Below are positions 48,900-63,542 of a stretch of DNA of 64,000 bases, in pieces; the first letter of the stretch is position 1; the number at the start of each line of letters is the position of its first letter. Origin of the DNA: an uncultured beta proteobacterium (lineage in GTDB: Bacteria > Pseudomonadota > Gammaproteobacteria > Burkholderiales > Burkholderiaceae); the NCBI GenBank assembly GCA_963838695.1, contig CAWIRZ010000048.1:49053-113052 (forward strand). The letters are read 5' to 3'. Position numbers and translations under genes: made by a program. The notes beneath the pieces are model-generated. The model had not been told where the DNA came from and did no database searches. It worked only from the letters and a program-made list of their open reading frames with translations.

Positions 48900-50450
48900 A
48901 TGGAATACGTGATCGGTGTCGATATCGGCACTCAGAGCACCAAAGCGTTGCTGGTCGATTGCCATGGCGCGATCGTCGCCAAGCATGCGTGCGGCTATCA
49001 GCCCGATACGCCGAAGCCGCTATGGGCCGAGCAATGGCCTTCGGTCTGGTTCGATGCGGTGCTCGAGTGCATCGCGCGCTGCGTGGAGGCCGCGCGCGAG
49101 CAGGGTATCGAGGCGGCGTCGATTCGGTCGGTCTGCATCGGCAGCCTTTACGGCGGATCGGGCATACCGGTCGACAACGATATGCGGCCTTTGCACCCGT
49201 GCTTGATCTGGATGGATCGCCGCGCCACCGCGCAGGTCGACTGGGTGCGCGAACATATCGACCAGGACCGACTGCTCGACATCACCGGCAATGGCGTGGA
49301 TAGCTACTACGGCTTCACGAAGATGCTGTGGCTGAGGGAGAATCGGCCGGACGTATGGGCGAATACGCGATACTTCTTGCCGCCCAATGCGTACGTGATC
49401 TACCTGCTGACGGGAGAGATCGCGGTCGATCATAGCTCGGCCGGCAATATCGGCGGCGTGTACGACATTGCGCGACGCGATTGGTCAGATACCACGCTCG
49501 ACATGCTCGGCATTCCGGCCACGATGATGCCCGAGCGTTTGGTCGAATCGACGGACATCGTGGGCGGCCTCCTCTCGCAGTGGACGGAACGGCTCGGGCT
49601 GCCGGGCGGCACGCCGGTTATCGCGGGCGGCGTGGATGCGGCCGTTGCCACATTTGCGGCGGGGGCCACGCGCGCAGGCCAGCATGTGGCGATGATCGGT
49701 ACCAGCATGTGCTGGGGCTATATCAATCAGAAAGTCGATGCAAGGCACGGTCTTGTCAGCATGCCGCACGTGTTCAACGGCAAGCACGACCTCTACGTGT
49801 TCGGCGGTGCGATCACGGCCGGTGCTTCCGTTACGTGGTTTCGCGAGCAGTTCTGTCACGCCGAGATCGAAGCCGCGCGCGCGCTGCCGCACGGCGATCC
49901 CCATGTGCTGCTGGAAGACGCGGCCGCGCAGGTGCCCGCCGGCTCCGAAGGCGTGATGTTCTTACCGTATCTGATGGGCGAGCGTAGCCCGGTTTGGGAC
50001 GCCAAAGCGAGCGGCGCATTCATCGGGCTCAACCTAGTGCATACGCGCGCGCATCTTTATCGCGCTGTCCTGGAAGGGGTGGCGTTCGCGCTTCGGCACA
50101 ACATCGAGGCGGGCCGTCGGGGAGCGCGCACGCTCGACGATAAGCTCATCGTTGTCGGCGGGGCCGCACATTCGCCGTTGTGGATGCAAATCATCGCGGA
50201 TATCACCGGCTATCCGGTCTGGACGATCGAACAGGAAGTCGAGGCGGCGATGGGGGCGGCGTTGCTTGCCGCCCTAGGTAGCCACCTCGTTTCGCCCGAA
50301 GCGGCACGCGGCGGGTGGGTGAACCTCGTCGAGCGGGCGCAGCCCGACGCGGGCCGCTGCGCGATGTACACCGAACGCTTCGAGATCTACAAGGACTTGT
50401 ATCCGGCACTCAAGCCGTTGATGCATCGGCTGCAAGGGGCGTCGGACTAA
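48900..50450 (+). CDS. FGGY-family carbohydrate kinase (xylulokinase-like)
   Basis: 'YVIGVDIGTQSTKALLVD' and 'LIVVGGAAHSPLWMQIIADITG'. Confidence 0.85.
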   Translation: MEYVIGVDIGTQSTKALLVDCHGAIVAKHACGYQPDTPKPLWAEQWPSVWFDAVLECIARCVEAAREQGIEAASIRSVCIGSLYGGSGIPVDNDMRPLHPCLIWMDRRATAQVDWVREHIDQDRLLDITGNGVDSYYGFTKMLWLRENRPDVWANTRYFLPPNAYVIYLLTGEIAVDHSSAGNIGGVYDIARRDWSDTTLDMLGIPATMMPERLVESTDIVGGLLSQWTERLGLPGGTPVIAGGVDAAVATFAAGATRAGQHVAMIGTSMCWGYINQKVDARHGLVSMPHVFNGKHDLYVFGGAITAGASVTWFREQFCHAEIEAARALPHGDPHVLLEDAAAQVPAGSEGVMFLPYLMGERSPVWDAKASGAFIGLNLVHTRAHLYRAVLEGVAFALRHNIEAGRRGARTLDDKLIVVGGAAHSPLWMQIIADITGYPVWTIEQEVEAAMGAALLAALGSHLVSPEAARGGWVNLVERAQPDAGRCAMYTERFEIYKDLYPALKPLMHRLQGASD

Positions 50451-50492
50451 TCGGCGAGGAGCGATCGCCTAGGCCGAGCCCGCTGTGGGGGC

Positions 50493-50565
50493 AGCCGCGG
50501 AACTCGGTCCCGGAAGTGAGTCCCAGGTCAGCCGCGGACGTGCAGCCGCGGAAGTTAGCCGCGGA
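50493..50565. repeat. four dispersed copies of AGCCGCGGA within 73 nt
   Basis: Copies at 50493, 50530, 50544 and 50557, in the convergent intergenic region. Each contains the palindrome CCGCGG. Confidence 0.7.
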
Positions 50566-50580
50566 AGTCGGCTGCATGAG

Positions 50581-51594
50581 TCAGCTGCGATCGCTCGCAT
50601 CGCTGTCGCCAACATGCGAGCGATGAGCGTCGATGCATTTTTCTTCTTCCACTTGAACGGTCGTGTGTTCGATCCTGAACGTCGCGGCCAAGCGACGCTG
50701 AACCGCGGCGACGACTTCATGCGAAGCCACACCGGGCGTCGGGTGGACATGCAAGGTGACCATATGCCGCTCCGCGGTAATCGACCATGCATGAATATGA
50801 TGCGCATCGCGCACTTCAGCCACGTTGCGCTCGAGATCGGCTTTGATGTCGGCCAGGCTGACGCCTTCCGGCGTGCCCTCGAGCAGGATATGCGCTGACG
50901 ATTTGACGATGCCCCAGGCACTTTTGAGAACGATCACCGCGACGAAGATCGAGAGAAGCGGATCGATGGGCGTCCAACCGGTGAATAGGATTACACATGC
51001 TGCGGCGATGGCCGCCACGGAGCCGAGCATATCGCCGAGCACATGCAGCCACGCGCCGCGCAGATTGAGGTTCTCGCGGTTGCCGCCGTGCAGGGCCGCG
51101 AACGCCGCGATGTTCGCCGCGAGCCCTGCCAACGCGACGATCAACATGGTCTTACCGAGCACGGGCACCGGTTCCGCGAACCGCCGCACGGCTTCGATCA
51201 CGATCCACGCGGCGATGACGAACAGCGCGCATCCATTGACGAATGCGGCGAGGATTTCGAGCCGCTTGTAGCCATACGAGAGCCTTGCGGTGGCGGGGCG
51301 CTTCCCATAGTGAATGGCGGCCCAGCTGAAACCGAGCGCGGCCGTGTCGCTGATCATATGGCCGGCATCGGCCAGTAGCGCCAGGGAGCCGGACAGCAAG
51401 CCGCCTACGATCTCCACCACCATGAACGTTGCGATGACCACGAACGCCAAACCGATGCGGCGCTGATCGGTTACGCCATGCAGATGGTCGTGCCCGGCGT
51501 GGCTGTGGTCGTGTCCCGCATGGTCGTGGGTGTGGCCGGCGTGGCCGTGGCCGTGGTCGTGGCTATGATCGTGATCGTGATGAGAATGCGCCAT
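50581..51594 (-). CDS. cation diffusion facilitator (CzcD/ZitB-type) metal exporter with His-rich N-terminus
   Basis: 'MAHSHHDHDHSHDHGHGHAGHTHDHAGHDHSHAGHDHLHG', then 'SGSLALLADAGHMISD' and 'HVLGDMLGS'. Confidence 0.9.
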   Translation of the reverse strand: MAHSHHDHDHSHDHGHGHAGHTHDHAGHDHSHAGHDHLHGVTDQRRIGLAFVVIATFMVVEIVGGLLSGSLALLADAGHMISDTAALGFSWAAIHYGKRPATARLSYGYKRLEILAAFVNGCALFVIAAWIVIEAVRRFAEPVPVLGKTMLIVALAGLAANIAAFAALHGGNRENLNLRGAWLHVLGDMLGSVAAIAAACVILFTGWTPIDPLLSIFVAVIVLKSAWGIVKSSAHILLEGTPEGVSLADIKADLERNVAEVRDAHHIHAWSITAERHMVTLHVHPTPGVASHEVVAAVQRRLAATFRIEHTTVQVEEEKCIDAHRSHVGDSDASDRS

Positions 51595-51773
51595 ATGTCT
51601 TGGTCCGAGGGGAATTCAAAACGCTGGACATGACGGAAAGGTCATGCCGCGTGCGTCCCCGGAGCATAACGCGGAAGTGATTCCCTTTCGTCGGTAAGGC
51701 GATATGAAAGCTGCGCGAGCGCACTCCACGCAAGCGCTCGCCTGACGCCGATCGGCAAACCGACGGTGGCCAG

Positions 51774-51847
51774 GAAGTTGCCCACAGATTCTGTTCGCAA
51801 GGCTGTGGGCAACGCTTGGGTAAATGCGATAAGCCGCTGAAACCGTT
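51774..51847 (+). repeat. copy A of a roughly 70-bp element containing an 11-bp-arm inverted repeat
   Basis: GTTGCCCACAG (51777-87) pairs with CTGTGGGCAAC (51803-13). It is followed by gcttgggtaaatgcgataagccgctgaaaccgtt. Closely matches copy B. Confidence 0.8.
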
Positions 51848-51941
51848 TGGTTTTCGCGCGCCGCTCTCGGTGCATGCATTCGGGCGATCCTGGCGCTGGA
51901 ACCCGGCGATGCCGATCGGAAAAACGCCCGAGACGCCCGAA

Positions 51942-52385
51942 TCAGGACTTCGCAGGGCGACCGGTCTTGACGGTTTCCACCGCCGAAACGGCGGCGAGCA
52001 GGCGTTTCAGGGGGGCGGCCTCCAACAACAACAGGCCGGCGCGCAGCAACTCGCTCTTCTTCGTCGACACGCCCGCGTCGAGGCATTTCTGCTTCAGCGC
52101 GGCGATCTTCTCGTAGTCGGATCTCGGCATCGTAAAGCTGTCGCGCACAACCTTTTCTTTTTTCGCGCGCTTGGTCTTGCCTTCTTTTACAACACTCGCG
52201 GGTGCCGCTTCGACGATCGCAGCAGCACGCTTTTGTTTCGGTGCCTTGGCCGGTGCGGGTGGGGTGGTCTCGGCAGCAACCACGGGCGCGATCGCCTGCT
52301 CCACTTCTACGGGCATTTTGCCGTTTGCGCTCTTCGGCACGCGCACCGCCTTTTTGGCTGCCTTCTTGACGATCGGTTCGCTCAC
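51942..52385 (-). CDS. hypothetical basic protein (Lys/Ala/Pro-rich N-half, conserved-looking C-half)
   Basis: GTG start preceded by GGAGAGG. 'VKKAAKKAVRVPK...APAKAPKQKRAAA', then 'VRDSFTMPRSDYEKIAALKQKCLDAGVSTKKSELLRAGLLLL'. Confidence 0.65.
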   Translation of the reverse strand: MSEPIVKKAAKKAVRVPKSANGKMPVEVEQAIAPVVAAETTPPAPAKAPKQKRAAAIVEAAPASVVKEGKTKRAKKEKVVRDSFTMPRSDYEKIAALKQKCLDAGVSTKKSELLRAGLLLLEAAPLKRLLAAVSAVETVKTGRPAKS

Positions 52386-52476
52386 GGTTCCTCTCCAGTT
52401 TATAAACGGTATAAACAGTATATACCGTTTATGGTGCGTCTCGGCTATACGAGGGAGCGCGCTGGACGCCTCGAAG

Positions 52477-52550
52477 AAAGTTGCCCACAGAAACTGTTCG
52501 CAAGGTTGTGGGCAACTGATGGGTAATTGCGGTAAGCGGCTGAAATCGTT
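52477..52550 (+). repeat. copy B of the roughly 70-bp element
   Basis: aaagttgcccacagaaactgttcgcaaggttgtgggcaactgatgggtaattgcggtaagcggctgaaatcgtt, in the same orientation as copy A. Confidence 0.8.
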
Positions 52551-52620
52551 GAGCTTATAGGCCGCGCTCTCGATCTACGCACGGCGAGGATCTAACGATG
52601 CGAAATACGGCGGCTATCGC

Positions 52621-53292
52621 TTACGAACCGTTGACGCGACGGGCCTTTTTGGCTGCGTCGCTACTCTTGCCGGGGCGTGGTGGGCTTTTAGCAATCGATG
52701 CCGCACCGGTTATCTGCTCCATCCAAGATAGCGCGTCGATGTACGAGAGAAACTGCTGGAGGTACCCCGGCGATAGCGCTTGCATCAGCGATAGCGAGCG
52801 GTGCACAAGGCTGCTCGAATTGAGTGGTCCCGGGTTTCCAGGTACTTGCGCGAGCGATTGCCGTAGCTGCTTCTCGGTGCTCATTCTCGACCAGATTTCT
52901 CTGAAGTCGTCGAGCAACGGCAGTTCGGGATAGGGGGCCGACCGAGCGGTAGGGCGCTGAGTTGCCAATCCTTCGCCGCGCGCCAATGCATGCGCCTCCA
53001 GATACTCCACCAGTCCCGCAAGCGCACCCCGATCCGGCTTGCCTAGCGATTGCGCGCCGACCGAATCGTTAGGTTGCCGCGCTTGAAATGCGGCACGCTC
53101 GAGATCGCCCGCGTAAGCATCGAGCAGTTCGCCGAGCCTATTGTCCAGAGCCCGTCGCGCTGCTCCGCTGTGCGTGGCCGAGCGCCGCGCCAGTGCTTCG
53201 ATGAAATGGAAGCGGATGGGATCCATGCGGTCCGCGCCTTGCTCGCGCCATGCGTCGAGCATCGATCGGGCGCGCGTCGCGCCGTTACTCAT
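52621..53292 (-). CDS. uncharacterised soluble helical protein (I recall this family as DUF2894; needs an HMM check)
   Basis: Its ATG 53292 overlaps the upstream MotB-like gene by 8 nt. No TM segment and no catalytic motif recognised. Confidence 0.7.
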   Translation of the reverse strand: MSNGATRARSMLDAWREQGADRMDPIRFHFIEALARRSATHSGAARRALDNRLGELLDAYAGDLERAAFQARQPNDSVGAQSLGKPDRGALAGLVEYLEAHALARGEGLATQRPTARSAPYPELPLLDDFREIWSRMSTEKQLRQSLAQVPGNPGPLNSSSLVHRSLSLMQALSPGYLQQFLSYIDALSWMEQITGAASIAKSPPRPGKSSDAAKKARRVNGS

Positions 53293-53929
53293 GAGACACC
53301 GCTGTGGCCGATGGCTTCGGGATCGGCGCGATTTCGACGCGCCGATTCTTGGCACGCCCCGCGCTGTCGGCGTTCGAGCCCACCGGCTGCTGGGCGCCGA
53401 ACGCAGCCGCGAAGACCGACGAAGCAGGTACGCCCGCATCGATCAACGCACGGGTGACCGTCAGTGCGCGCTGGGCCGAGAGCTCCCAGTTATCGGCGAA
53501 TTGCTTGGTGCCGCCACGTACTTGGCGGTCGTCGGTGAAGCCGCTCACCATCAGGATTTCGTCGCGCGCCACTAGATACCGGGAGAGCGGCCCCGCCAAA
53601 CTCTTCAGCACGTCTCGGCCTTCGGGCTGCAACTGATCCGAGTTCAGCGCGAACAACACACTGCCGCTGATACCGATTCGGCCGTTGACCAGCGTTACCC
53701 GGCCCGCGGCCAGCGGGCCCGCCAACGCGTCTTCCAAAGCCTTGCGGCGCTGCGCTTCTTGGTGCCGCTGCTGGACCTCTTTCTCGAGCTTCGTCGAGAG
53801 TTCCAGTTGCGCGCCGATGACGCACACCAGGATCAGCATGAAAGCCCCCAGCAGCACCGACATCAAATCGCCGAACGCCGCCCAGATCGGCGTGACGTGC
53901 TCCACGCCGCCGTCGATTTCCTCGCTCAT
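53285..53929 (-). CDS. MotB/OmpA-like protein (single TM with conserved Asp, plus OmpA_C peptidoglycan-binding domain)
   Basis: 'PIWAAFGDLMSVLLGAFMLILV' is a MotB/ExbD-style TM segment with Asp21. 'GFTDDRQV...NWELSAQRALTVTRALIDAGV...GRAKNRRVEI' is the OmpA_C domain. Confidence 0.85.
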   Translation of the reverse strand: MSEEIDGGVEHVTPIWAAFGDLMSVLLGAFMLILVCVIGAQLELSTKLEKEVQQRHQEAQRRKALEDALAGPLAAGRVTLVNGRIGISGSVLFALNSDQLQPEGRDVLKSLAGPLSRYLVARDEILMVSGFTDDRQVRGGTKQFADNWELSAQRALTVTRALIDAGVPASSVFAAAFGAQQPVGSNADSAGRAKNRRVEIAPIPKPSATAVSHE

Positions 53930-56022
53930 GCCGCTGCGGCTCCAGCCGATGCCCGCGGGCCCGCGAGCTGTTGCAGATCTTCGATGATTTGTTTCTGCGA
54001 CATCATGCTGAGGTCGATGACTTCTCTCGCCTGCGCGACGTAGTAGGCGAGCTGCTCGTCGCTGCGCGCGAGCGACTTGTCGAGTGCCGCTTCGATACGC
54101 GTGAGATGCGTCACCAAAGCGTCGTTCGATTGGCCGAACAACTGGACGGCGGCACCGAATGCTTCGCCAAGGCTCGCGACTTCGACCGCGCTACCGGTCA
54201 CTTGCGCCGCGATCGCGCCGAGTTTTTCGGTTTCTGCGTCGACCCTCGCGGCGAATTGCGTGCCGACGCGCTCCAGCAGAGTGGCCGACGTGGCGACGAG
54301 CGCATCGACAGCCGATCGTTGTTCGGTACTGGCGAGGTTGACGGCATCGAGCAACGTTTCCAGCGTTGCCAACAAGCGGCTGCGTTCTTCAAGCATGGCG
54401 GTATCGCGCACCATGCTCTCGGAAAGTTTCTGTCGTAGTTCGGCGACGACTTCAGCCGCCGCCTTGGGCGCTTCCGATGCAGCTTGTACGAGTCGAGCGA
54501 TCTCGTCGATCGTCTCGCTGGCGCGCGCTTGCGTATCGGCGGAAATTTCACGTGCGGTCTGCGCGAGCACATTGCAGATGTCCTGCTGCCGGTCTGCCGT
54601 ACGCTTGCCTGCTGCGTCCCATTCGTTGCTCAGCGTAGCCGCCATTGAGCCGAGCGTTTCGGTCCAGGCCGCGAGCCGCTGCTCGTCGCGCGCAGCGAGT
54701 TCGGCCTGTAACTGCGCATGAGAGCGATCGACGTTTTGCAGCAGCGCAGCAGCGTGCTGCTCGAATGTGGCCGCGGCAGCTTGCAGGGCTTCGCGGTTGC
54801 GATCGGAAAGAGTCTCGCCGATCCTTTCTTGCTGCGATAGCGCCGCAGTCCACGCTTCCGACATATTGCCCGTGGTGACATCGAGGCGCGCCGCTACGTC
54901 TTGCAGCAGCTTGCCCGAGCGTTGTTCGAAAGTTTCGGTAAAGCCGGTGAGTGCGGTGTTCAACTGCCGGGCAAGCGCCTCGCTCGATTGACGGTGTTCC
55001 GTCAGCGCGTGGTTCCAGATGCCCGACACCGTCTGCGTCGCAGTCTGGAAACCATCCGAGAGCCCATCGAGTTGCCGCTCGACGGCTCGCGTGACAGCGT
55101 CGTGCAAAGAGGCTGTCTCTTGCGCGAGCCCGGCCATCGTCGCTTCCACGACCGGTTGCAGGGCGGCACCGGCTGCGCGGGCGCTGTCGGTCACGGTCTG
55201 CCTCAACGACTGTTCGACGGACGAAGCCAATCGAGAGTAAGCGGCCTCGACCCCGCGGTGAAACGCATCTTGGCTCGCCAGTTGCCGCTCGTTCGCGGCC
55301 ATGCTGTGTTGTTCGATCGTCGACATCATCGTTTGCAACCGATCGACGAGCGCGGGCATCGTTTGCGCCTGCTGCTGCAGGAGCTTAAGCATCTCCTCGC
55401 GCTGATAGGACTGCGAAAACACGCGCAATGTCGTGGCGATCTTCACGTCGAGGCGCTGCGCCGCTTCGATTCTTTCGCGCCGGCACAACGCGGAAAGCAG
55501 CCCGAGCATGGCGGACGTCGCCACGCCGGCGATCGAGGTACCGAATGCAAACCCCAGACCCTTGACGGGCGCAGCGAGCGATGCCCGGATCGCTTGCAGA
55601 TCCGTCGCGCTGTCGAGCGCCATGCCGGTGCCTCTCAAGGTGGCAGCCATGCCCAGCAGTGTGCCCAGCATTCCGAGCAAGACGAGCAATCCGACCAAGT
55701 AGGGGGTCAGCGCCGGCCCGGGCAAGGCCACGCGCTCGCCCTCGATGCGCAGACGCACCGCGTTGCGCAAGCTCACCGGCAGTGGATCGAGGCAAGCGGC
55801 CAGGCTGGGCGGCGCCGCGGACAGACCGTCGACGGTGCGCACCAAAGCGGCGGTAGCTTGGCTGTAGCGTCGAAGTTCGAGTGCGCCGGCTATGTAGCAA
55901 GCACCGACCAACAGCGTGACGGCTAGCGCGAGCGAGTTCGAGCCGACGTAGCCAACGCCGACCCAGCAGAGCGCGGCAAGGCCGGCCAAGAAAGCGACGA
56001 TGCTGATGAGATGTCTGGACAT
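53926..56022 (-). CDS. MotA/ExbB/TolQ-like channel protein with a roughly 470-aa helical tail (I recall this family as DUF802; needs an HMM check)
   Basis: 4 TM segments. The last pair, 'PYLVGLLVLLGMLGTLLGMAATL' and 'GLGFAFGTSIAGVATSAMLGLLSALC', resembles the MotA_ExbB core. The rest is Ala/Gln/Glu/Leu/Thr-rich helical repeats. Its stop overlaps the MotB-like start (ATGA). Confidence 0.8.
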   Translation of the reverse strand: MSRHLISIVAFLAGLAALCWVGVGYVGSNSLALAVTLLVGACYIAGALELRRYSQATAALVRTVDGLSAAPPSLAACLDPLPVSLRNAVRLRIEGERVALPGPALTPYLVGLLVLLGMLGTLLGMAATLRGTGMALDSATDLQAIRASLAAPVKGLGFAFGTSIAGVATSAMLGLLSALCRRERIEAAQRLDVKIATTLRVFSQSYQREEMLKLLQQQAQTMPALVDRLQTMMSTIEQHSMAANERQLASQDAFHRGVEAAYSRLASSVEQSLRQTVTDSARAAGAALQPVVEATMAGLAQETASLHDAVTRAVERQLDGLSDGFQTATQTVSGIWNHALTEHRQSSEALARQLNTALTGFTETFEQRSGKLLQDVAARLDVTTGNMSEAWTAALSQQERIGETLSDRNREALQAAAATFEQHAAALLQNVDRSHAQLQAELAARDEQRLAAWTETLGSMAATLSNEWDAAGKRTADRQQDICNVLAQTAREISADTQARASETIDEIARLVQAASEAPKAAAEVVAELRQKLSESMVRDTAMLEERSRLLATLETLLDAVNLASTEQRSAVDALVATSATLLERVGTQFAARVDAETEKLGAIAAQVTGSAVEVASLGEAFGAAVQLFGQSNDALVTHLTRIEAALDKSLARSDEQLAYYVAQAREVIDLSMMSQKQIIEDLQQLAGPRASAGAAAA

Positions 56023-56047
56023 AGTGCTCCAGTAATCCTGTATTCGG

Positions 56048-56791
56048 TTAGCGGGTGCGAAGGGCAGCGAGCAATCCTTCGACCGGTTGAAAACGAACTT
56101 CGAGTTCGGCGAGTAGCGCGCTTTGCATGTCTTTGCGGAACACGTCCAACCATGCACGCGGCGAGTGTTCCTGCACGGTGCCCGATGCTTCGGCATCGGC
56201 GAGTGCGGCCTGCTCGGCCTGGCGCAAACGCTCGAAATACTTGGCGAGCAACGCGGGGATGCCTGCCAGCAGGCTTTGCTCGCGCGGGGCCAACGCGCGT
56301 TCCATGACGGCATCCACCATGGCGAGCCGCGCCATTTCGGGCGTGCGGGCGGCGAGCGCGCCGCGCAGGCGCTCGCGCAGGTTGCCGACGGCCGTCTCCA
56401 TCTCGCGCTGCATGTACAGATAGCGCTGACGAAACACGGAATAATCGACCGAGGCATCCGCGGTGCTTTCCAGCGCGGGTGCCTGAGCCGGCCCGCGCTG
56501 TTTGAGTGCGGCGAACACGGTGTCGTCGGCGATGGCTTTCCTCAGCGCAGCACGCACGCGAGCGTACTCGCTCTCCACGGCGCGCGCGCTGGCGCGTGCG
56601 TCGGAGGCGACGACCGGTGCGTTGCCGTTCAGCGCGGAGGACAGCGTAATGGCGTCCGTCCAGTTGAGCCATTGGCTGAGCCGGTCGGAGAGCGCTTGTC
56701 GATCGTCGGGAACGTCGGCGCCGGTCAGACGCGCGAGCAGGCGAATTAGGGTCGGGCCGCTTAGGGCTGTGCGCTGAGGGGCTTCCACCAT
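56048..56791 (-). CDS. uncharacterised protein, first gene of the stator-like operon (I recall this family as DUF3348; needs an HMM check)
   Basis: 247-aa soluble helical protein. Lies 25 nt upstream of the MotA-like gene on the same strand. Confidence 0.7.
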   Translation of the reverse strand: MVEAPQRTALSGPTLIRLLARLTGADVPDDRQALSDRLSQWLNWTDAITLSSALNGNAPVVASDARASARAVESEYARVRAALRKAIADDTVFAALKQRGPAQAPALESTADASVDYSVFRQRYLYMQREMETAVGNLRERLRGALAARTPEMARLAMVDAVMERALAPREQSLLAGIPALLAKYFERLRQAEQAALADAEASGTVQEHSPRAWLDVFRKDMQSALLAELEVRFQPVEGLLAALRTR

Positions 56792-56880
56792 ACAACCAAA
56801 GTCAAAGAGGCAGCAGTTTACACTGCGCCGCGAGCGAGGTGGCCGGACGGCGTCCGATCGGGCTGAATTTGAGCGGATAG

Positions 56881-57287
56881 TTGGCGGTCTTCAAGACCAG
56901 GGTGTTCGCCCGCTGGGCCGACAAAGAAGGCGTAAGCGATTCGGCGTTGCTTGCGGCAATGGAGGAGATAAGCCGAGGGCGGATTGATGCGAACCTCGCG
57001 GTCATGTTTTCAAGGACCGTATGGGCATCGGCGGACGAGGGAAGAGCGGCGGGGTGCGTACGCTGCTGGGGTTGCGGGCAGGGGGCGAGCCATCTTCGGA
57101 CTATCGAGTGTCCCAGCCCGACGGAAGTACGCTGATTAACGCGGACGGCCTGCGGCAGCATCGCCCACCTCCACCGACGCCCAATACCACCTACGCGACG
57201 ACCGGAGCGCAAGCCGATTTCCAACCGCTGTCCGAGCGAACGGTGCCACCTCTATCTGCTGCCGGGGGGACGATGTTGTGTCATTAA
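56881..57287 (+). pseudogene. decayed RelE/ParE-superfamily toxin gene (several frameshifts)
   Basis: 'AVFKTRVFARWADKEGVSDSALLAAMEEISRGRIDANL' continues in a second frame as 'GHVFKDRMGIGGRGKSGGVRTLLGLRAGG...INADGLRQ'. This matches the layout of toxins of the 'FKTKxFxRWAxKE...GKSGGxRTL' type. No antitoxin ORF follows. Confidence 0.5.
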
Positions 57288-57516
57288 TCTTGACCAAAAC
57301 CTCAACGAACCGGCATAGCGAGAAAACCGGCAAACCGATTTTCTGATAGACCGTTCTGTTTTTAAAAAATCCTCGGTTTAATGCGCTCGACAATTCGCTT
57401 TCGGTGAGGTATAGCCGCGCTCTCCGTATCGGCGTGAGTGCCTATGGAATGCTGAAAATGGTACTTCCCCATAAAACGGAAAGAAGTTCACGGCCTGCGT
57501 TTTAGTCGTGCGACTG

Positions 57517-57544
57517 TTGACAAAAACACTGGAATCATTACAGT
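57517..57544 (+). promoter_or_regulatory. candidate sigma70 promoter
   Basis: TTGACA (57517-22), a 16-nt spacer, then TACAGT (57539-44). Lies about 110 nt upstream of the 27-codon ORF in an AT-rich intergenic region. Confidence 0.5.
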
Positions 57545-57587
57545 AACGCAAAACACTGATCGGAACGATATGTCGATTTGCCCGTAA

Positions 57588-57642
57588 AACGGCAAAAGCC
57601 GTTGCTCGCCGGTCTTTAGCGAGCATTCTTCAATCTTGTTTT
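57588..57642 (+). promoter_or_regulatory. structured 5' leader: two hairpins, the second followed by a U-rich tract
   Basis: AACGGC-aaaa-GCCGTT at 57588-603. TGCTCGC (57603-09) pairs with GCGAGCA (57619-25), followed by ttcttcaatcttgtttt. The SD AGGAGAG at 57644-50 comes directly after. Confidence 0.45.
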
Positions 57643-57654
57643 CAGGAGAGAGCT

Positions 57655-57738
57655 ATGTCCCAAACGACTCCGCAACAGCCTGTCATTGTGGTCAAACCGC
57701 GTAACCCGCGTCCTGTGCTGATTCCCGTTCACCTGTAG
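57655..57738 (+). CDS. 27-aa Pro-rich peptide MSQTTPQQPVIVVKPRNPRPVLIPVHL (candidate RiPP precursor, or a regulatory leader peptide)
   Basis: Not in the supplied ORF track because it is too short. ATG 57655 sits 4 nt after AGGAGAG, with a TAG stop at 57736-38. It lies directly upstream of three RRE-like/HDO genes on the same strand. Confidence 0.55.
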   Translation: MSQTTPQQPVIVVKPRNPRPVLIPVHL

Positions 57739-57763
57739 GAAATAGTAGGTTCCCGTGAAGGGC

Positions 57764-57791
57764 CGGAGCCATCTGAACAACGATGGCTCCG
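57764..57791 (+). promoter_or_regulatory. 10-bp perfect hairpin between the peptide ORF and the first enzyme gene
   Basis: CGGAGCCATC (57764-73), loop tgaacaac, GATGGCTCCG (57782-91). No U tract follows. Confidence 0.7.
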
Positions 57792-57802
57792 TGCATAGAT
57801 CA

Positions 57803-58816
57803 ATGCGGCCGGAGGAAAGCGTGGATCAAATTATCTCGGATTCCTGTAGATTCCGTTTGAATTCATCGGTTATCTCGAATATGCCGCTCGTCGTCAAAAC
57901 GGCAGCCGGTGACGAGTTTGAAATCGAGGCTGGCGCCATAACGGCGGACGAAACAGCCGGCCTGCTCGGCAGCCTTGCCGAAGACCGCGATGTCGACGAG
58001 ATCGCGGGCCTGCTTCCCACTCGATCGCGTGAGAACGTTCGCACGCTGATGGCCTACTTGGCGGCACACGGAATCGTTCGCCCCGTCGTGCCTTCGACGG
58101 GGAAAACCGGCCTCGATGCGCTGTTGGAAATCGAAGATTTGTCGAACCGATTGCTATACGATACGCTTTACCGAAACGAGTTCTGGGTCAACTGTTCGAA
58201 AGCCGCGAAGCGGGGTGACATCCCGGAGTCGGTCATTTACGGCATGGTCATCGAAAACTATCATTTTCTCTTCCGTGAAAGCTACTTCGATGCCCCGGTG
58301 CTGTCGTTTGTTTCGAATACGAACGTTCGCCTCGCGATGAATGCCTTTTTCGCCGAGGAGTATGGCCACGACGAGTTGCTTCTGAAATCGCTCAATCAAA
58401 TCGGCATCTCGCGAGAAGACTTGGCGCATACAGTGCCGTTGCCGCAGACTATGGCGCTATGCAACAGTCTGGCTTATTGGTCCCACAACGATCCGATATT
58501 TTTCTTCACGACGCTCGGCATCCTTGAAGGAAAGGATATCCGGCAGGATTCATTCCTCGACGCGTCGTACCGCGTCGGCATTGACCCCGATTTTCTGAAG
58601 CCGGTGAAGGCGCACTCCGACATTAATTTGAAGGGCGAGCACGGAAGCCTGACACGGAAGATTTTTTCACAAATCCCGGTGGTCGACGAAGAAACAATGC
58701 GCCGCTTGCGCGCGCAGACACATCTCTTTATCGAGCTATACGACGCTTTCTATTCGGCCGTCTGGCGACACTATTCGCACGCCGGCGAGTTGCTGCGGCA
58801 CATCGATCGCATCTGA
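57803..58816 (+). CDS. HDO-A: haem-oxygenase-like di-iron oxidase (iron-containing redox enzyme family) with a PqqD/RRE-like N-domain
   Basis: Ligand-type motifs 'IENYHF', 'AEEYGHDE', 'GILEGKD' and 'KAHSDINLKGEHG'. The N-domain 'ITADETAGLLGSLAEDRDVDEIAGLL...VRTLMAYLAAHGIV' is PqqD-like. The start is ATG 57803 or GTG 57821 (GGAGGA SD). The track start at 57755 would span the hairpin. Confidence 0.75.
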   Translation: MRPEESVDQIISDSCRFRLNSSVISNMPLVVKTAAGDEFEIEAGAITADETAGLLGSLAEDRDVDEIAGLLPTRSRENVRTLMAYLAAHGIVRPVVPSTGKTGLDALLEIEDLSNRLLYDTLYRNEFWVNCSKAAKRGDIPESVIYGMVIENYHFLFRESYFDAPVLSFVSNTNVRLAMNAFFAEEYGHDELLLKSLNQIGISREDLAHTVPLPQTMALCNSLAYWSHNDPIFFFTTLGILEGKDIRQDSFLDASYRVGIDPDFLKPVKAHSDINLKGEHGSLTRKIFSQIPVVDEETMRRLRAQTHLFIELYDAFYSAVWRHYSHAGELLRHIDRI

Positions 58817-58839
58817 CCATCCTTTGTCGTGAGGGCACC

Positions 58840-59847
58840 ATGCAGGCACCGAGCACGAACGACCTTTTCACTTTTCCGACCTTGCGCACCGGCGTCGAGG
58901 TCGAGAACACGGACGACGGGATTGCACTTATCTACGGCAACCAGTCGTGCGATATTTTCGCCGACGGCGAAACGAAAGAGCCGCTGCGCGCGCTGATCGA
59001 CTCCATGAGAAACGGCCACGCAACCGTCGACGACCTGCGCGCACGGCATCGATCGGTCGCGGCCTCGATTGATCCGCTATTGGAGGAACTGGACCGGCTC
59101 GGACTCGTCACCGAGTCGAAATTCGAGTGGCCCACCGATGTGCGCTCGGGACCGGAATTCAACGCACGCATTCGAGACCTGGCGGTCCGGGCCATGCGCT
59201 CACGCTGCAATTCGCGCCTATTCTCGATGATGGAAGACGGGTCGCTGACGCGCGAAATGCTCATCGGCTACGCGCTCGAATATTACTACTTGGTGCGCGA
59301 GGCGCCCGGACTCATCGCGCCGGCAATCTCGCAAGCCGACAGCCGGAGGAACCGGCAGGCCATTCAGCGCTTTCTCGTATCGGAGCTCGATCACGACTTG
59401 ATGTTGGCCGAGAGCCTGAAGGCGGCGGGCATCGACACATCGGACGGCAAGCTAGACTACCTGGTGCCGCTTCCCTCCACGTTCGCGCTGTGTGCAGCGC
59501 TTGGCGTATACGCGAAACAGCATCCGCTATCGTTCAAGAGCATTCTCTTCCTCTTCGAAATTCCCAGCATACGTTTTAACGAAACGCTCACCGCGCACTG
59601 CGAGAAGGTGGGGCTGCCGAAGGCTTTTTCGACACCGTTGCTCACTCATGCCAACATCAACGATTCGCTTGACCACGAAGACGTCACGGCCGAGCTGCTG
59701 AGCGACTTGACGGCCATCTCGCGTGAAGAGCAGCTCGTTGTCGAAAAGAACGTCGTGCTCGCCATCGAAACGATGGTCCAGCAGGAAGAAGAGATCATCG
59801 ACTATTACGGGCGGCCGAACGCTGTCATTCCCCGCATTTTTCAGTAA
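58840..59847 (+). CDS. HDO-B: paralogous RRE-like plus haem-oxygenase-like di-iron oxidase
   Basis: Motifs 'ALEYYYL', 'VSELDHDL', 'FLFEIPS' and 'LTHANINDSLDHED'. N-domain 'ETKEPLRALIDSMRNGHATVDDLRARH...IDPLLEELDRLGLV'. Confidence 0.8.
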   Translation: MQAPSTNDLFTFPTLRTGVEVENTDDGIALIYGNQSCDIFADGETKEPLRALIDSMRNGHATVDDLRARHRSVAASIDPLLEELDRLGLVTESKFEWPTDVRSGPEFNARIRDLAVRAMRSRCNSRLFSMMEDGSLTREMLIGYALEYYYLVREAPGLIAPAISQADSRRNRQAIQRFLVSELDHDLMLAESLKAAGIDTSDGKLDYLVPLPSTFALCAALGVYAKQHPLSFKSILFLFEIPSIRFNETLTAHCEKVGLPKAFSTPLLTHANINDSLDHEDVTAELLSDLTAISREEQLVVEKNVVLAIETMVQQEEEIIDYYGRPNAVIPRIFQ

Positions 59848-59869
59848 CTTCGAAGACAGAGGGCAATCC

Positions 59870-61360
59870 ATGGAAGCCTGGCAGATTCGCCGTTACGACA
59901 TGCCGTGCCTGGTCCCGTTATCGGCTCAGCTCGATGAAGATGGCCGGACCGTCGTGCTGACCGCGGAATCGAACGAATACGAGATCGCGTCCAACGAAGT
60001 CGATGGTCAGCAACTGCTCGAAAGTCTCCTTGCGATGACGGATCCCAACGCGCAGATCTGGGTGGATGTCAATGACGGTCACGCCTTGCCTTGGCAAGCG
60101 TCGCTGGTGCAGCAGCTCGACGAGCTGTCGCTGGTGCAGAGCAAGCCTGCCGATCAAGACATTCTGGACGAGCGCGCCGCGCTCTGCGAACGATGGGTTC
60201 AAGATGCGGAGCAAACGCTGGCGGGCATGGCGAAAGCACAAACCGAAGCCTATCGAAGCGCTATTTCCGCCTTCATCCAAATCCTCGATACCCCGCCGCC
60301 GCAAGTGGATGCATGCTCGGTCGCGGACGTTCCCCGCATCGGGGGCCGCGATAACTTCGCCCTGCAGACGTTCTTTCTCCAGAAACTCTACGTCGAAGAG
60401 AACCTGCCGGTCGTGGTGTCGCTATGGCGACAGGTTTTGCATCGGACCGGGTCTCGCCTCGGCATGACGTTCGGCGATTCAGCCTCGCCGCCTCGGGCGG
60501 CTGCGACGAGTATCGGACTCTATTGCACGGCGCACATCCAAGCCTATCTCATGTGCCTCGTCGATCTCGTCCGTCTTGCCACGACCGACGATTCCGCTCG
60601 TCGTATCTACGCAGACGCGCCGCACCTCAGTGTCGAAACCGGCCTCAATTTTATGCGGCGCGCCGAGCAATTCGCGCTCTCGTGCCTCGCTCGACTTGGC
60701 CAGTCGCGCTATGTCGCGATGATCAACGACGAGTCCACCCGATTTGGCCCGCTCGTGCAGGGACTCTTCATCGAGCAATATCACGTGACGCAGCGCTTCG
60801 TGGAAATCATCGCGCCGCTCATGACCAAGCGTACCCGCTCCGCGATCAAGCAACGCGTCTATCGTTACTTTCAGGAGGAGCTTGGGCACGAGGCATTCGA
60901 ACACGCCACGTGCGTCGCGCTCGGCGTTACCCCCCTGCGACTCGACGCGGCATTGCCGCTACCGCTTTTTCAGGCTTACGTCGACGCATTCACCGTCCTT
61001 GGCCGTTACGACGCGATTGGCTACATGAGCTCGATCATGGTCACGGAAGGGATGCTCGGCGTCGACAATCCGGTCCACCATCGCCTTGAAGCGCTCGCGT
61101 CTTCGCTCGTCGACTATCAGCGAGTCGCGAAGCGACACGACGACCTGAACGTCGAATTGAATCACGCCTCGTTGTCGCGATTGTTCTTCGAAGAAGTGCG
61201 CGCCATCTCACCTGAGGCGCAGCAGCGCGCGCTGGCAAATTTGGCATTTCTCATCGAGCTGAACTTCCGCGCGATGGACCAGGTCGCTGATTTTTACGGA
61301 GCCCAACGCGAACTGACCACGTGTTCTCTCTCGACCTATGCGACAGCTTTCGCGCCATGA
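59870..61360 (+). CDS. HDO-C: third paralog, longer (RRE-like N-domain, helical insert, HDO core)
   Basis: ATG 59870 is preceded by AGAGGG. Motifs 'FIEQYHV', 'FQEELGHEA', 'MVTEGML' and 'KRHDDLNVELNHAS'. N-domain 'VDGQQLLESLLAMTDPNAQIW...LVQQLDELSLV'. Confidence 0.8.
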   Translation: MEAWQIRRYDMPCLVPLSAQLDEDGRTVVLTAESNEYEIASNEVDGQQLLESLLAMTDPNAQIWVDVNDGHALPWQASLVQQLDELSLVQSKPADQDILDERAALCERWVQDAEQTLAGMAKAQTEAYRSAISAFIQILDTPPPQVDACSVADVPRIGGRDNFALQTFFLQKLYVEENLPVVVSLWRQVLHRTGSRLGMTFGDSASPPRAAATSIGLYCTAHIQAYLMCLVDLVRLATTDDSARRIYADAPHLSVETGLNFMRRAEQFALSCLARLGQSRYVAMINDESTRFGPLVQGLFIEQYHVTQRFVEIIAPLMTKRTRSAIKQRVYRYFQEELGHEAFEHATCVALGVTPLRLDAALPLPLFQAYVDAFTVLGRYDAIGYMSSIMVTEGMLGVDNPVHHRLEALASSLVDYQRVAKRHDDLNVELNHASLSRLFFEEVRAISPEAQQRALANLAFLIELNFRAMDQVADFYGAQRELTTCSLSTYATAFAP

Positions 61361-62631
61361 GAGATCAAGCGACGGAGGCCGACGCGTACGAGCTTTTCGT
61401 TAACCCGGCTTGGTCGAACATCGTTCGGCTAGCCGGTCTCGACATGCAACCGGTACGTGCGTCCGGTAGCTGGCTGTGCCTGCGCGACGGACGGCAAATG
61501 CTCGACTTCGTGTCCGGCTACGGTGCCATGCCGCTCGGGCATCATCCCTCGGCACTGCTCGAACGTTTGGGCCGCGACTTACTCGGCCCATTGCCGAATC
61601 TCAATCCGCTCGGCATCTGTGCTGATGCCGGCGTGTTGGCCGGGCAGCTCATCGAGCTTGCCGGCATACCTGACGGCAAGGTGTTTTTTGGCAACGGAGG
61701 CGTCGATGCAGTCGAAGCGGCGCTGAAGTTTGCAATGGTGCATACGCGGCGCTCCGGCATCGTGACCATTGCGGGCGGCTTTCACGGCCTGTCGTTGACG
61801 GCGACATGGCTGGCGGGTTCCGATTTCTGGCGTCGAGATTTACCGGCTGCACCCGCTCAGTTCCGGCAGGTGCCGTTCGGCGATACCGAAGCGATCCGTG
61901 TCATGCTCGAGCGCGAGGAAGTGGCCGCGGTCCTACTCGAACCCGTTCAGGGAACCGCCGGCGCGCGCGCCTGGAAACAGTCCGACTTGAAAAGGATTGC
62001 CGACTTGTGCGACGAGCACGGAACGGTGCTGATTTTTGACGAGATCCTTTGTGGCTTGGGGCGAACGGGAGACTGGTTCGCCTACCAGACGCTCGACGTC
62101 CCCGCGCCGCAGATGGTGCTCGTATCGAAGGGCCTGACAGGCGGCGTTTTTCCGGTTTCCGCCGTCTTGATGCAAGACGTCATCTATCAATCGATGTTCG
62201 CGCGAGACAATGCCGCCAAAATTCATGGCTCTACGTTTGGTGGCAACCGACTTGGCATGCGATGCGGTTCGCATGTGCTTTCGCTCCTGCGCGAGTACGA
62301 CGTTTGCTCGAACGCGCGAAGGCAGGGCGACCGCCTGCGTAGCGGCATCGAGCGGATAGGTTTGCCGGCTGGGCTTGTCTGCGAAGGGGTGGGCCTCGTG
62401 CTGTCGATTCGTGCCACGGACGACTGCGCGCAGCGCTTCGGCGACGACGTCGCCGCTCGGCTTTGGCATGCTTTGCTCGCGCAAAACATCGTCACGATTC
62501 CCGCAGCACACGATCCGATGTCGGTGCGGCTGCTGCCGCCGTTGAACGTAACGTCGGGGGAAATCGACCTGTTTCTGGCTGCATTCGATAACGCCGTTCA
62601 CGAATTGACGATCGGCCAGGAGGCGAGATGA
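61357..62631 (+). CDS. class-III PLP-dependent aminotransferase
   Basis: 'NGGVDAVEAALKFA', 'FDEILCGLGRTGDWFA', 'VSKGLTGGVFPVSA' (PLP Lys) and 'HGSTFGGN'. Its ATG overlaps the HDO-C stop (ATGA). Confidence 0.85.
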   Translation: MRDQATEADAYELFVNPAWSNIVRLAGLDMQPVRASGSWLCLRDGRQMLDFVSGYGAMPLGHHPSALLERLGRDLLGPLPNLNPLGICADAGVLAGQLIELAGIPDGKVFFGNGGVDAVEAALKFAMVHTRRSGIVTIAGGFHGLSLTATWLAGSDFWRRDLPAAPAQFRQVPFGDTEAIRVMLEREEVAAVLLEPVQGTAGARAWKQSDLKRIADLCDEHGTVLIFDEILCGLGRTGDWFAYQTLDVPAPQMVLVSKGLTGGVFPVSAVLMQDVIYQSMFARDNAAKIHGSTFGGNRLGMRCGSHVLSLLREYDVCSNARRQGDRLRSGIERIGLPAGLVCEGVGLVLSIRATDDCAQRFGDDVAARLWHALLAQNIVTIPAAHDPMSVRLLPPLNVTSGEIDLFLAAFDNAVHELTIGQEAR

Positions 62632-63542
62632 AGGTAAGACATATTTTGTTGGCCACGCTTGTCGCGGCAATCTGGGGCCTCAGTTTCGTCGTGGTAGCGA
62701 TCGGCTTGCGGGGGTGCCCGCCACTGCTTCTGGCAGCCCTGCGTTTCGTGATCGTATTTGCATTTGGCGTCATGTTGTTTCCGCGCCCCACGTTGCCTTG
62801 GAAACTTTACCTACGAGCAGGTCTTTGCCTGGGCGTCATCCAGTTTGCGAGCTTGTTTTCCGCTATCCACCTGGGCGTTCCGGCGGGCATCGTATCGGTG
62901 CTCGCACAGATGCAGGTATTCATCACGCTGCTGTTGTCGGGCGTCGTCTTGAAGGAATCGTCTTCCCCAACGCAGCAGAGGATGATGGCGCTTGCCCTGC
63001 TGGGTGTGCTATTGCTAGGCTACGCACGGTATCACGCTACGCTTCCGCTCGCCCCGGTCGGGCTCGCGCTCCTCGGAGCGGCTGGCTTCGCCTGGGGAAA
63101 TATCGAATTGAAGCGTGCGGGGAAAGTCGACATGTTCGCTTTCACGGTTTGGATGAGCATCGTCCCACCGATACCGTTGCTGTTTCTTTCCATGCTGGTC
63201 GAAGGAGGGCCGACGGGATTGTTCGACGCGCTGAAGCACCTGTCCTGGACCAGCGTATTTGCTCTGTTCTTCCTTGCGATAATCGGTACGCTGTTTTCGC
63301 TCGGAGCCTGGGGGCGGCTGATGAGCCTATATCCGGTTGCGGTGGTCGCGCCGTTCTCCCTGGTGAGCCCAGTTTTCGGTATGTTGGGTGGGTACTTTAT
63401 ACTGAACGAGCACTATGACACGGTGAGCGTTATCGCTTCGGGCTTGATCGTCTTCGCACTCGCCGGGAATACTTATGCGTCGAGGATCAATCAGCGTAAC
63501 GTCAGCGCTCGACGGTCGGCGGCCTCAACTCTGAAGAGCTAA
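62628..63542 (+). CDS. EamA/DMT-family transporter (likely exporter)
   Basis: 10-TM-type pattern. 'LLATLVAAIWGLSFVVV' and a duplicated EamA-like half. Its ATG overlaps the aminotransferase stop (ATGA). Confidence 0.85.
   Translation: MKVRHILLATLVAAIWGLSFVVVAIGLRGCPPLLLAALRFVIVFAFGVMLFPRPTLPWKLYLRAGLCLGVIQFASLFSAIHLGVPAGIVSVLAQMQVFITLLLSGVVLKESSSPTQQRMMALALLGVLLLGYARYHATLPLAPVGLALLGAAGFAWGNIELKRAGKVDMFAFTVWMSIVPPIPLLFLSMLVEGGPTGLFDALKHLSWTSVFALFFLAIIGTLFSLGAWGRLMSLYPVAVVAPFSLVSPVFGMLGGYFILNEHYDTVSVIASGLIVFALAGNTYASRINQRNVSARRSAASTLKS

Follow-up and report, generated by a model that had tools for sequence, protein, structure and literature searches.

Does an operon that couples a MotAB-like stator to two soluble proteins serve the upkeep of the cell envelope, or does it protect the cell against phages? 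The question is raised by four minus-strand genes at positions 52621-56791 of a 64,000-nucleotide stretch of DNA from an uncultured beta proteobacterium of the Burkholderiaceae (contig CAWIRZ010000048.1 of assembly GCA_963838695.1, positions 49,053 to 113,052 of the forward strand), the whole of which is called the window below. A preliminary description, made from the letters alone, had presented the cluster as uncharacterised, a view open to revision should a function already stand in the literature. Such a function had been assigned by Payne et al (2021): PADLOC has included type III Zorya since 2021, and in E. coli a homologous system lowers plaquing (PMC8565338). We conclude with good confidence that the four genes, zorG-zorA-zorB-zorF, make up a complete anti-phage system, a Zorya of type III; the details of the mechanism proposed below are much less certain.

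The operon consists of four intact and translationally coupled open reading frames (lengths in amino acids, aa; TM, transmembrane):

56791..56048, minus strand: gene 1, zorG (PADLOC ZorG3; DUF3348), 247 aa, soluble and all-helical
56022..53926, minus strand: gene 2, zorA3 (DUF802), 698 aa, four TM-like segments and then ~500 residues of helical tail
53929..53285, minus strand: gene 3, zorB3, 214 aa, an N-terminal TM helix with Asp21, a helical linker and an OmpA-like peptidoglycan-binding domain
53292..52621, minus strand: gene 4, zorF (PADLOC ZorF3; DUF2894), 223 aa, basic and helical, the last gene

The coordinates of the reading frames bear out the coupling described at the outset, with a 25-nt spacer containing GGAG between zorG and zorA3, an ATGA overlap between zorA3 and zorB3, and an 8-nt overlap between zorB3 and zorF; the 699 aa given for gene 2 included the stop codon. 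By hydropathy, gene 2 has four TM-like segments (about 1-28, 21-51, 98-131 and 158-180), gene 3 has one (14-48), and genes 1 and 4 have none, in agreement with the four helices and the single helix previously noted, and the peptides quoted for them are found in the translations. Pfam families were matched by all four proteins far beyond chance, DUF3348 (PF11828) by gene 1 (E=7e-93), DUF802 by two stretches of gene 2 (E=7e-30), OmpA by residues 92-196 of gene 3 (E=2e-17) and DUF2894 (PF11445) by gene 4 (E=1e-63), and the gene order DUF3348-DUF802-OmpA-DUF2894 stated at the outset is the actual one.

The type III assignment follows from the PADLOC models, which cover all four proteins, together with the Pfam families, which are those defining the type. 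All four match essentially end to end: ZorG3 and ZorF3 genes 1 and 4 (E=1e-101 and 2e-81, respectively), ZorA3 gene 2 over 698 of 698 positions (E=0), and ZorB3 gene 3, with an alignment over positions 1-210 of 215 (E=5e-115). The models of types I and II match more weakly (ZorA1, 5e-10; ZorA2, 3e-8; ZorB1, 3e-18). From NCBIfam, the PRK09040 equivalog matches ZorB3 at 1e-114, and antiphage_ZorA_2 matches the channel core of ZorA3 at 4.7e-7, under the cut-off of the model. As type III membership implies, the DUF3348 and DUF2894 proteins are encoded on either side of zorAB and on the same strand, in the order G-A-B-F, which is kept in all 76 complete loci from a set of 80 species. Note that the names of the two partners are exchanged between sources: DUF3348 is ZorF and DUF2894 is ZorG for Payne et al (PMC8565338), the reverse holds in PADLOC-DB v2 (DUF3348 is ZorG3, DUF2894 is ZorF3), and Hu et al (2024) use both zorFABG and zorGABF (PMC11946911). 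The PADLOC names are used here.

Type III was defined by Payne et al (2021) from 6,401 zorAB pairs in RefSeq flanked by DUF3348 and DUF2894 genes, nearly half of the Zorya systems counted (the other two types combined account for 7,742; PMC8565338). In the same work, the type III system of Stenotrophomonas nitritireducens DSM 12575 was cloned in E. coli BL21-AI, where it significantly lowered the efficiency of plaquing of at least one of the phages T1, T4, T7, lambda-vir and PVP-SE1, and cultures challenged with PVP-SE1 at a multiplicity of infection (MOI) below 0.1 did not collapse (PMC8565338). A Stenotrophomonas locus of our set (L064) shares 68, 76, 58 and 48% identity with the window operon for ZorA, ZorB, ZorG and ZorF, respectively. 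Expression data point in the same direction: zorG3 and zorF3 transcripts of S. maltophilia increase on phage exposure, and the first genes of the operon change expression upon infection in B. cenocepacia. In the later structural papers, whose subject is types I and II only, type III appears just as an entry in a list (PMC11890865; PMC11946911). Among papers and preprints up to 2026 we found none on the mechanism of type III, and sequence and profile searches of the PDB returned no entry covering ZorA3, ZorF or ZorG.

Three elements within zorA3 and zorB3 stand out:

55483..55722, minus strand: ZorA3 residues 101-180, the TM3-loop-TM4 ion-channel core (LGMLGT... and FGTSIAGV... motifs), placed by conservation and by alignment with 8VVN
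53998..54522, minus strand: ZorA3 residues 501-675, the conserved tail tip, 58-86% identity across homologues
53867..53869, minus strand: codon for Asp21 of ZorB3 (the ion-binding residue in subunits of the MotB/ExbD/TolR/ZorB type), with the translation checked

The TM3/TM4 core is the most conserved part of ZorA3 (92% mean identity over 238 homologues). In an alignment of 25 diverse heads, G117, G120, T121, G124, F160, G161, T162, S163 and S170 are invariant, and a profile built from these heads reached chain C of 8VVN, the cryo-EM structure of the Shewanella type I ZorAB, over residues 104-250 (E=3.1e-6), with LGxxGT and F-x-T-S-x-x-G-V aligning with identical residues of the structure. To judge by this profile match, the core is homologous to the solved ZorA, with a conserved Thr/Ser polar ring predicted from T121, T162, S163 and S170, which supports the earlier reading of the last TM pair as a MotA/ExbB/TolQ-type core. 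Searched as a single sequence, ZorA3 gave only coiled-coil matches in the PDB (spectrin, E=0.03), which we discarded as spurious, the head profile being required to reach 8VVN. A wider search found 7,620 ZorA3 homologues, all of them DUF802 proteins, and the best named relatives are from Paraburkholderia.

ZorB3 supplies the second half of the motor. Among 75 orthologues, drawn from the genomes of species representatives in about 25 genera, D21 never varies (75/75), nor do W16, F19, L22, M23, G28 and F30 around it, so that the invariant-type Asp pointed out in the preliminary description is indeed conserved. The C-domain contains the NxxLSxxRA motif and matches the C-domains of MotB, PomB, Pal and YfiB in the PDB; together with the Pfam OmpA match, ZorB3 clearly carries a domain predicted to bind peptidoglycan, again as had been proposed. 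The ZorA/ZorB-like design suspected from the outset is therefore borne out: ZorA1, ZorA2, ZorB1 and the solved ZorA are matched at the profile level, the Asp is invariant, and an OmpA domain is present.

The remainder of ZorA3, ~500 residues after TM4, contains only four prolines and displays a hydrophobic period of 3.66 residues (11/3; its power is 138, whereas the strongest of 200 shuffles gave 97.5). Conservation along the tail is uneven: the middle (residues 326-500) is the least conserved part of the protein (46-54%), and identity is high again over the last ~175 residues, peaking at 86% for residues 651-675. This tip is conserved whatever the total length of ZorA3, which takes discrete values of 698, 871/872, 959, 995, 1045, 1098, 1200/1207 and 1220 aa. 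Tandem internal repeats underlie these steps, of 87 aa in Paraburkholderia and Cupriavidus necator, 131 aa in Achromobacter and 149 aa in C. basilensis, with copies 30-56% identical to each other; the 11-residue periodicity is present in all tails compared (homologues P0001-P0120). The window ZorA3 is the minimal form without tandem repeats and belongs to the shortest class, also found in Ralstonia solanacearum and in three close metagenomic relatives (698 aa in each). Because the type I tail and its tip are needed for defence and for signalling to ZorC and ZorD (PMC11946911), we infer by analogy that the conserved tip may be the docking or action site of ZorG and/or ZorF.

What these two partners do is less readily read from their sequences. 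The fairly confident AlphaFold2 model of ZorG (pLDDT, predicted local distance difference test, 75; pTM, predicted template modelling score, 0.71) has nine helices, with a long C-terminal bundle at residues 117-245, and a Foldseek comparison of this model with the PDB gave no fold match beyond E=0.2 and a TM-score of 0.22; resemblances to pore-forming toxins and to the Mx stalk were rejected as generic similarity between long helices. The ZorF model is poor (pLDDT 56) and confident only in the N-terminal helical residues 1-72, and its fold search against the PDB returned no match, though a model of this quality is too poor for the search to be meaningful. The most conserved stretch of ZorF (P151-N-x-G-P-L-N-S-x-x-L-x-H-R...) falls in the low-confidence region and might become ordered only upon binding of a partner. 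Profile searches with ZorG and ZorF against the PDB and PHROGs found nothing. ZorF is basic (isoelectric point 9.9), with a Lys/Arg-rich C-terminal tail. Among the best 120 matches to each protein, every homologue has a single domain and a length of about 210-290 aa, and none is fused to an enzymatic domain. Both partners evolve faster than the motor, their identity to relatives being 38-69% for ZorG and 37-63% for ZorF versus 70-83% for ZorB. Both partners are small, all-helical and without a recognisable catalytic domain, in line with the earlier view of genes 1 and 4 as soluble helical proteins with no recognised motif.

No canonical Zorya effector accompanies the motor. PADLOC matched no ZorC, ZorD or ZorE in the operon or within about 10 kb of it, no nuclease or helicase was found over the same span, and no fifth conserved gene, nuclease, helicase or other effector recurs beside the operon in the flanks of 83 loci; the PADLOC search and the flank survey thus agree with the absence of a ZorC/D/E-like nuclease or helicase reported previously.

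From these elements a working scheme can be drawn, in which the stoichiometry, the triggering and the roles of ZorF and ZorG are all inferred. Like their solved homologues of types I and II, ZorA3 and ZorB3 would form a 5:2 ion-driven motor in the inner membrane, the TM helices of two ZorB3 subunits presenting Asp21 within a ring of Thr and Ser from TM3 and TM4 of ZorA3. The OmpA-like domain of ZorB3 would anchor the motor to peptidoglycan, and the ~500-residue C-terminal part of ZorA3 would extend into the cytoplasm as a long helical bundle. The proposal made for types I and II is that the envelope disturbance at phage entry lets ZorB engage peptidoglycan and opens the ion path, the tail relaying the signal to soluble partners; by analogy, the type III motor may sense the perturbation of the envelope as a phage enters. 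ZorG and ZorF would then dock on the conserved tail tip as adaptors or regulators, their likely targets being the ion flux of the motor itself or, as ZorF is basic, DNA and host factors. Two outputs are candidates, a gating of the ion flux with an abortive-infection-type outcome, and DNA binding or recruitment of a host factor by ZorF.

We then consider where the operon resides and how it is inherited. The flanks of 83 loci were compared, including 80 species-representative loci (L001-L080). Flanks are common across species within Paraburkholderia (two groups), Achromobacter, Cupriavidus, Variovorax and a Caballeronia pair, and the recurrent neighbours are ordinary genes (LysR, solute symporter, FAD oxidoreductase, histidine kinase, response regulator, methionine aminopeptidase, TctC, TerC). 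No flank gene is universal, the commonest cluster being a generic LysR at 17 of 83 loci, and the flanks of the window operon, with sugar-transport, SDR (short-chain dehydrogenase/reductase), kinase and CDF genes, are common to none of the 82 other loci. A 4.9-kb block (56842..51946 of the window), which starts 51 nt ahead of zorG and extends as far as the stop of a small gene further downstream, is 84% identical at the DNA level in a metagenomic relative (L081), where the flanks beyond it are unrelated. PLSDB has 166 records with ZorA3, each of them a replicon of 0.37-3.2 Mb and none a small plasmid. Ralstonia megaplasmids, on which the operon is near-universal, make up 135 of these, and the proline dehydrogenase gene next to it has 130 Ralstonia records. 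Relatives are held by at least 583 of 185,579 species genomes, the best 80 matches all coming from Burkholderiales and Lysobacterales, and the nearest ZorB neighbours track taxonomy. ZorB3 of Lysobacterales (Dyella, Rhodanobacter, Luteibacter, Xanthomonas, Stenotrophomonas) and of Burkholderiales are on average 74% identical, against 78-81% within each group; this closeness, greater than expected for two proteobacterial classes, suggests transfer between the orders.

Several of our observations weigh against an anti-phage role. The activity was seen with one homologue, under induced expression in a foreign host (PMC8565338), and no effector chemistry can be assigned, ZorG having no fold match and ZorF no reliable model. 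A frequency in Ralstonia equal to that of a neighbouring metabolic gene is unusual for a defence system, and the family was found in 0 of 50,697 phage records and, in PLSDB, only on the large replicons mentioned above. Nor does the locus resemble a defence island: within about 10 kb, PADLOC matched nothing besides the operon except ABC (ATP-binding cassette) transporter ATPase cross-matches (the flank matches to mad3, mad8, AriA and AbiLi all fall on a single such ATPase and were dismissed as P-loop cross-matches), no tRNA gene lies at the locus, and no integrase- or transposase-like Pfam domain was detected among the flank reading frames scanned. In its behaviour the operon is closer to a stable module of the chromosome than to the genes of a defence island, the overall evidence on core versus island being mixed. 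The claim that the cluster belongs to the core genome of Burkholderiales holds in part, its position being kept in several genera and its Ralstonia counts being core-like, but it is not universally syntenic and the flanks of the window operon are unique. Likewise, the metabolic surroundings and the absence from phages and small plasmids uphold the statement that this is not a mobile defence island, whereas the further step to an envelope machine rather than a defence system received no positive support.

Taken to their end, these traits would make ZorA3B3 a vertically inherited housekeeping device, ion-driven and devoted to envelope surveillance or repair, division or uptake, with the phage protection in E. 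coli a side effect of over-expression. The positions conserved within genera, the Ralstonia counts, the taxonomic order of ZorB, the ordinary neighbours (two-component systems among them), the absence from phages and small plasmids and the lack of an enzymatic effector are all what such a device would show. Yet no positive evidence of a cellular phenotype accompanies them, the sole experiment on the family shows phage protection (PMC8565338) and transcripts respond to phage; moreover, the lack of a universal flank gene, the many unique contexts (the window included), the recurrence of the 4.9-kb block between unrelated flanks, the ZorB identities suggestive of inter-order transfer and the set of genomes holding relatives, at least 583, fit poorly with it, and we regard this explanation as rather unlikely. 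Core-like traits in some lineages do not overturn the defence assignment. Of similarly low, perhaps slightly higher, probability is a broader proposition, namely that type III differs from types I and II in being an effector-less, largely vertical ZorAB motor, core-like in Ralstonia and with a stable position in several genera of Burkholderiales, that acts through the motor and two non-enzymatic tail-tip adaptors and whose native role would be general envelope surveillance, phage defence being one outcome or by-product.

A different alternative keeps the defence role and makes the motor itself the effector: triggered ion flow through ZorA3B3 would depolarise the membrane and halt the infected cell, with ZorF and ZorG gating or timing the flow. 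No catalytic domain was found in either partner, the protection of liquid cultures at an MOI below 0.1 fits a population-level defence, and Payne et al proposed the two proteins as regulators of ZorAB (PMC8565338). However, Hu et al found that type I defends directly, through the action of ZorC and ZorD on DNA, and not by cell death (PMC11946911), and a long conserved tail with its tip would be superfluous for a simple leak; this version has perhaps one chance in a few. A decayed or silent remnant, finally, could be suspected from a tail of the shortest class and from the sigma-70 promoter scan, which covers one promoter type and found no minus-strand site upstream of zorG. The four reading frames are nonetheless intact and tightly coupled, every invariant residue of the family is retained, and the same tail length recurs in Ralstonia solanacearum and the three metagenomic relatives, which leaves decay very improbable. 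A complete type III Zorya system thus accounts best for the operon.

The other features of the window lie mostly downstream of zorF. One of them may mark the end of the transcript:

52480..52515, minus strand: hairpin element (TTGCCCACA...TGTGGGCAA), about 105 nt downstream of zorF

The repeat containing this hairpin has two copies in the window (51777-51812 and 52480-52515; 0 expected), and the hairpin stands at the same place after zorF in L081, inside the shared block; it is possibly the 3' end of the transcript. The two copies bracket a small gene just downstream of zorF (51942-52385, minus strand, GTG start) that encodes 147 aa, with a Lys/Ala/Pro-rich N-terminal half and a C-terminal part resembling a ribbon-helix-helix; it has no Pfam or PHROG match. 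It is preceded by a palindrome, AAACGGTATATACTGTTTATACCGTTTATAAAC. Along with the operon, L081 has inherited the small gene (77% aa identity), the palindrome and the upstream hairpin, and none of the three is present at the other 81 loci. Beyond the small gene, some 1 kb downstream of the operon, a CDF cation-efflux transporter is encoded at 50581-51594 (minus strand), with a long His/Asp-rich N-terminal stretch (HSHHDHDHSHDHGHGH...). On the other side, three consecutive PF14518 genes for heme-oxygenase-like "iron-containing redox enzyme" proteins (353, 335 and 545 aa) lie at 57755-63542 (plus strand), where a class-III aminotransferase and an EamA-type exporter come next; the region resembles a small cluster for the biosynthesis of an unusual product derived from an amino acid. 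An Rfam scan of 50000-59000 found nothing.

Overall, the operon is an ordinary member of type III, already known, named and, in a homologue, once tested for phage defence; a PADLOC or DefenseFinder run would label it as such, and its value as a discovery is small. Its interest lies in the question of mechanism, type III being common and yet devoid of a nuclease, a helicase or a solved structure. To this question our survey adds the conserved parts, namely the motor core and the last ~175 residues of the tail, as well as the tail lengths set by tandem repeats, a ZorG model and the context data.

Compared with known machines, ZorA3 and ZorB3 share the general plan of the 5:2 motors MotAB/PomAB and ExbBD/TolQR, a channel subunit paired with a single-TM subunit bearing a conserved Asp, and the OmpA-like C-domain of ZorB3 aligns with those of MotB and PomB. 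A flagellar stator was nevertheless rejected: ZorA3 has no Pfam MotA_ExbB (PF01618) match at E≤0.01, the MotB, MotD and MotS models score ZorB3 at 46-89 bits against cut-offs of 250-301, the cytoplasmic torque domain of MotA is absent and replaced by the 500-residue tail, and no flagellar, TonB or Tol-Pal genes lie nearby. Types I and II (8VVN, 8VVI) resemble it in design, with a MotA-like ZorA that combines a TM3/TM4 polar-ring motif and a long helical cytoplasmic tail and is close in total length (696 aa in Shewanella, 698 aa in the window), and with a ZorB that bears an Asp in its TM segment and a domain for binding peptidoglycan. The relationship is distant and limited to the channel core (E=1e-6 to 1e-10), and where types I and II have ZorC, ZorD (helicase/nuclease) or ZorE (HNH nickase), the window operon has none of them and instead encodes two small helical proteins without a fold match, one of them upstream of zorA. 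With type III it is the same in all four families, in order, strand and lengths; the system of Ralstonia solanacearum OE1-1 has the same 698-aa ZorA and the same ATGA and 8-nt overlaps. Many type III relatives carry repeats of 87, 131 or 149 residues, whereas the window operon is short-tailed and unique in its context; otherwise nothing essential differs.

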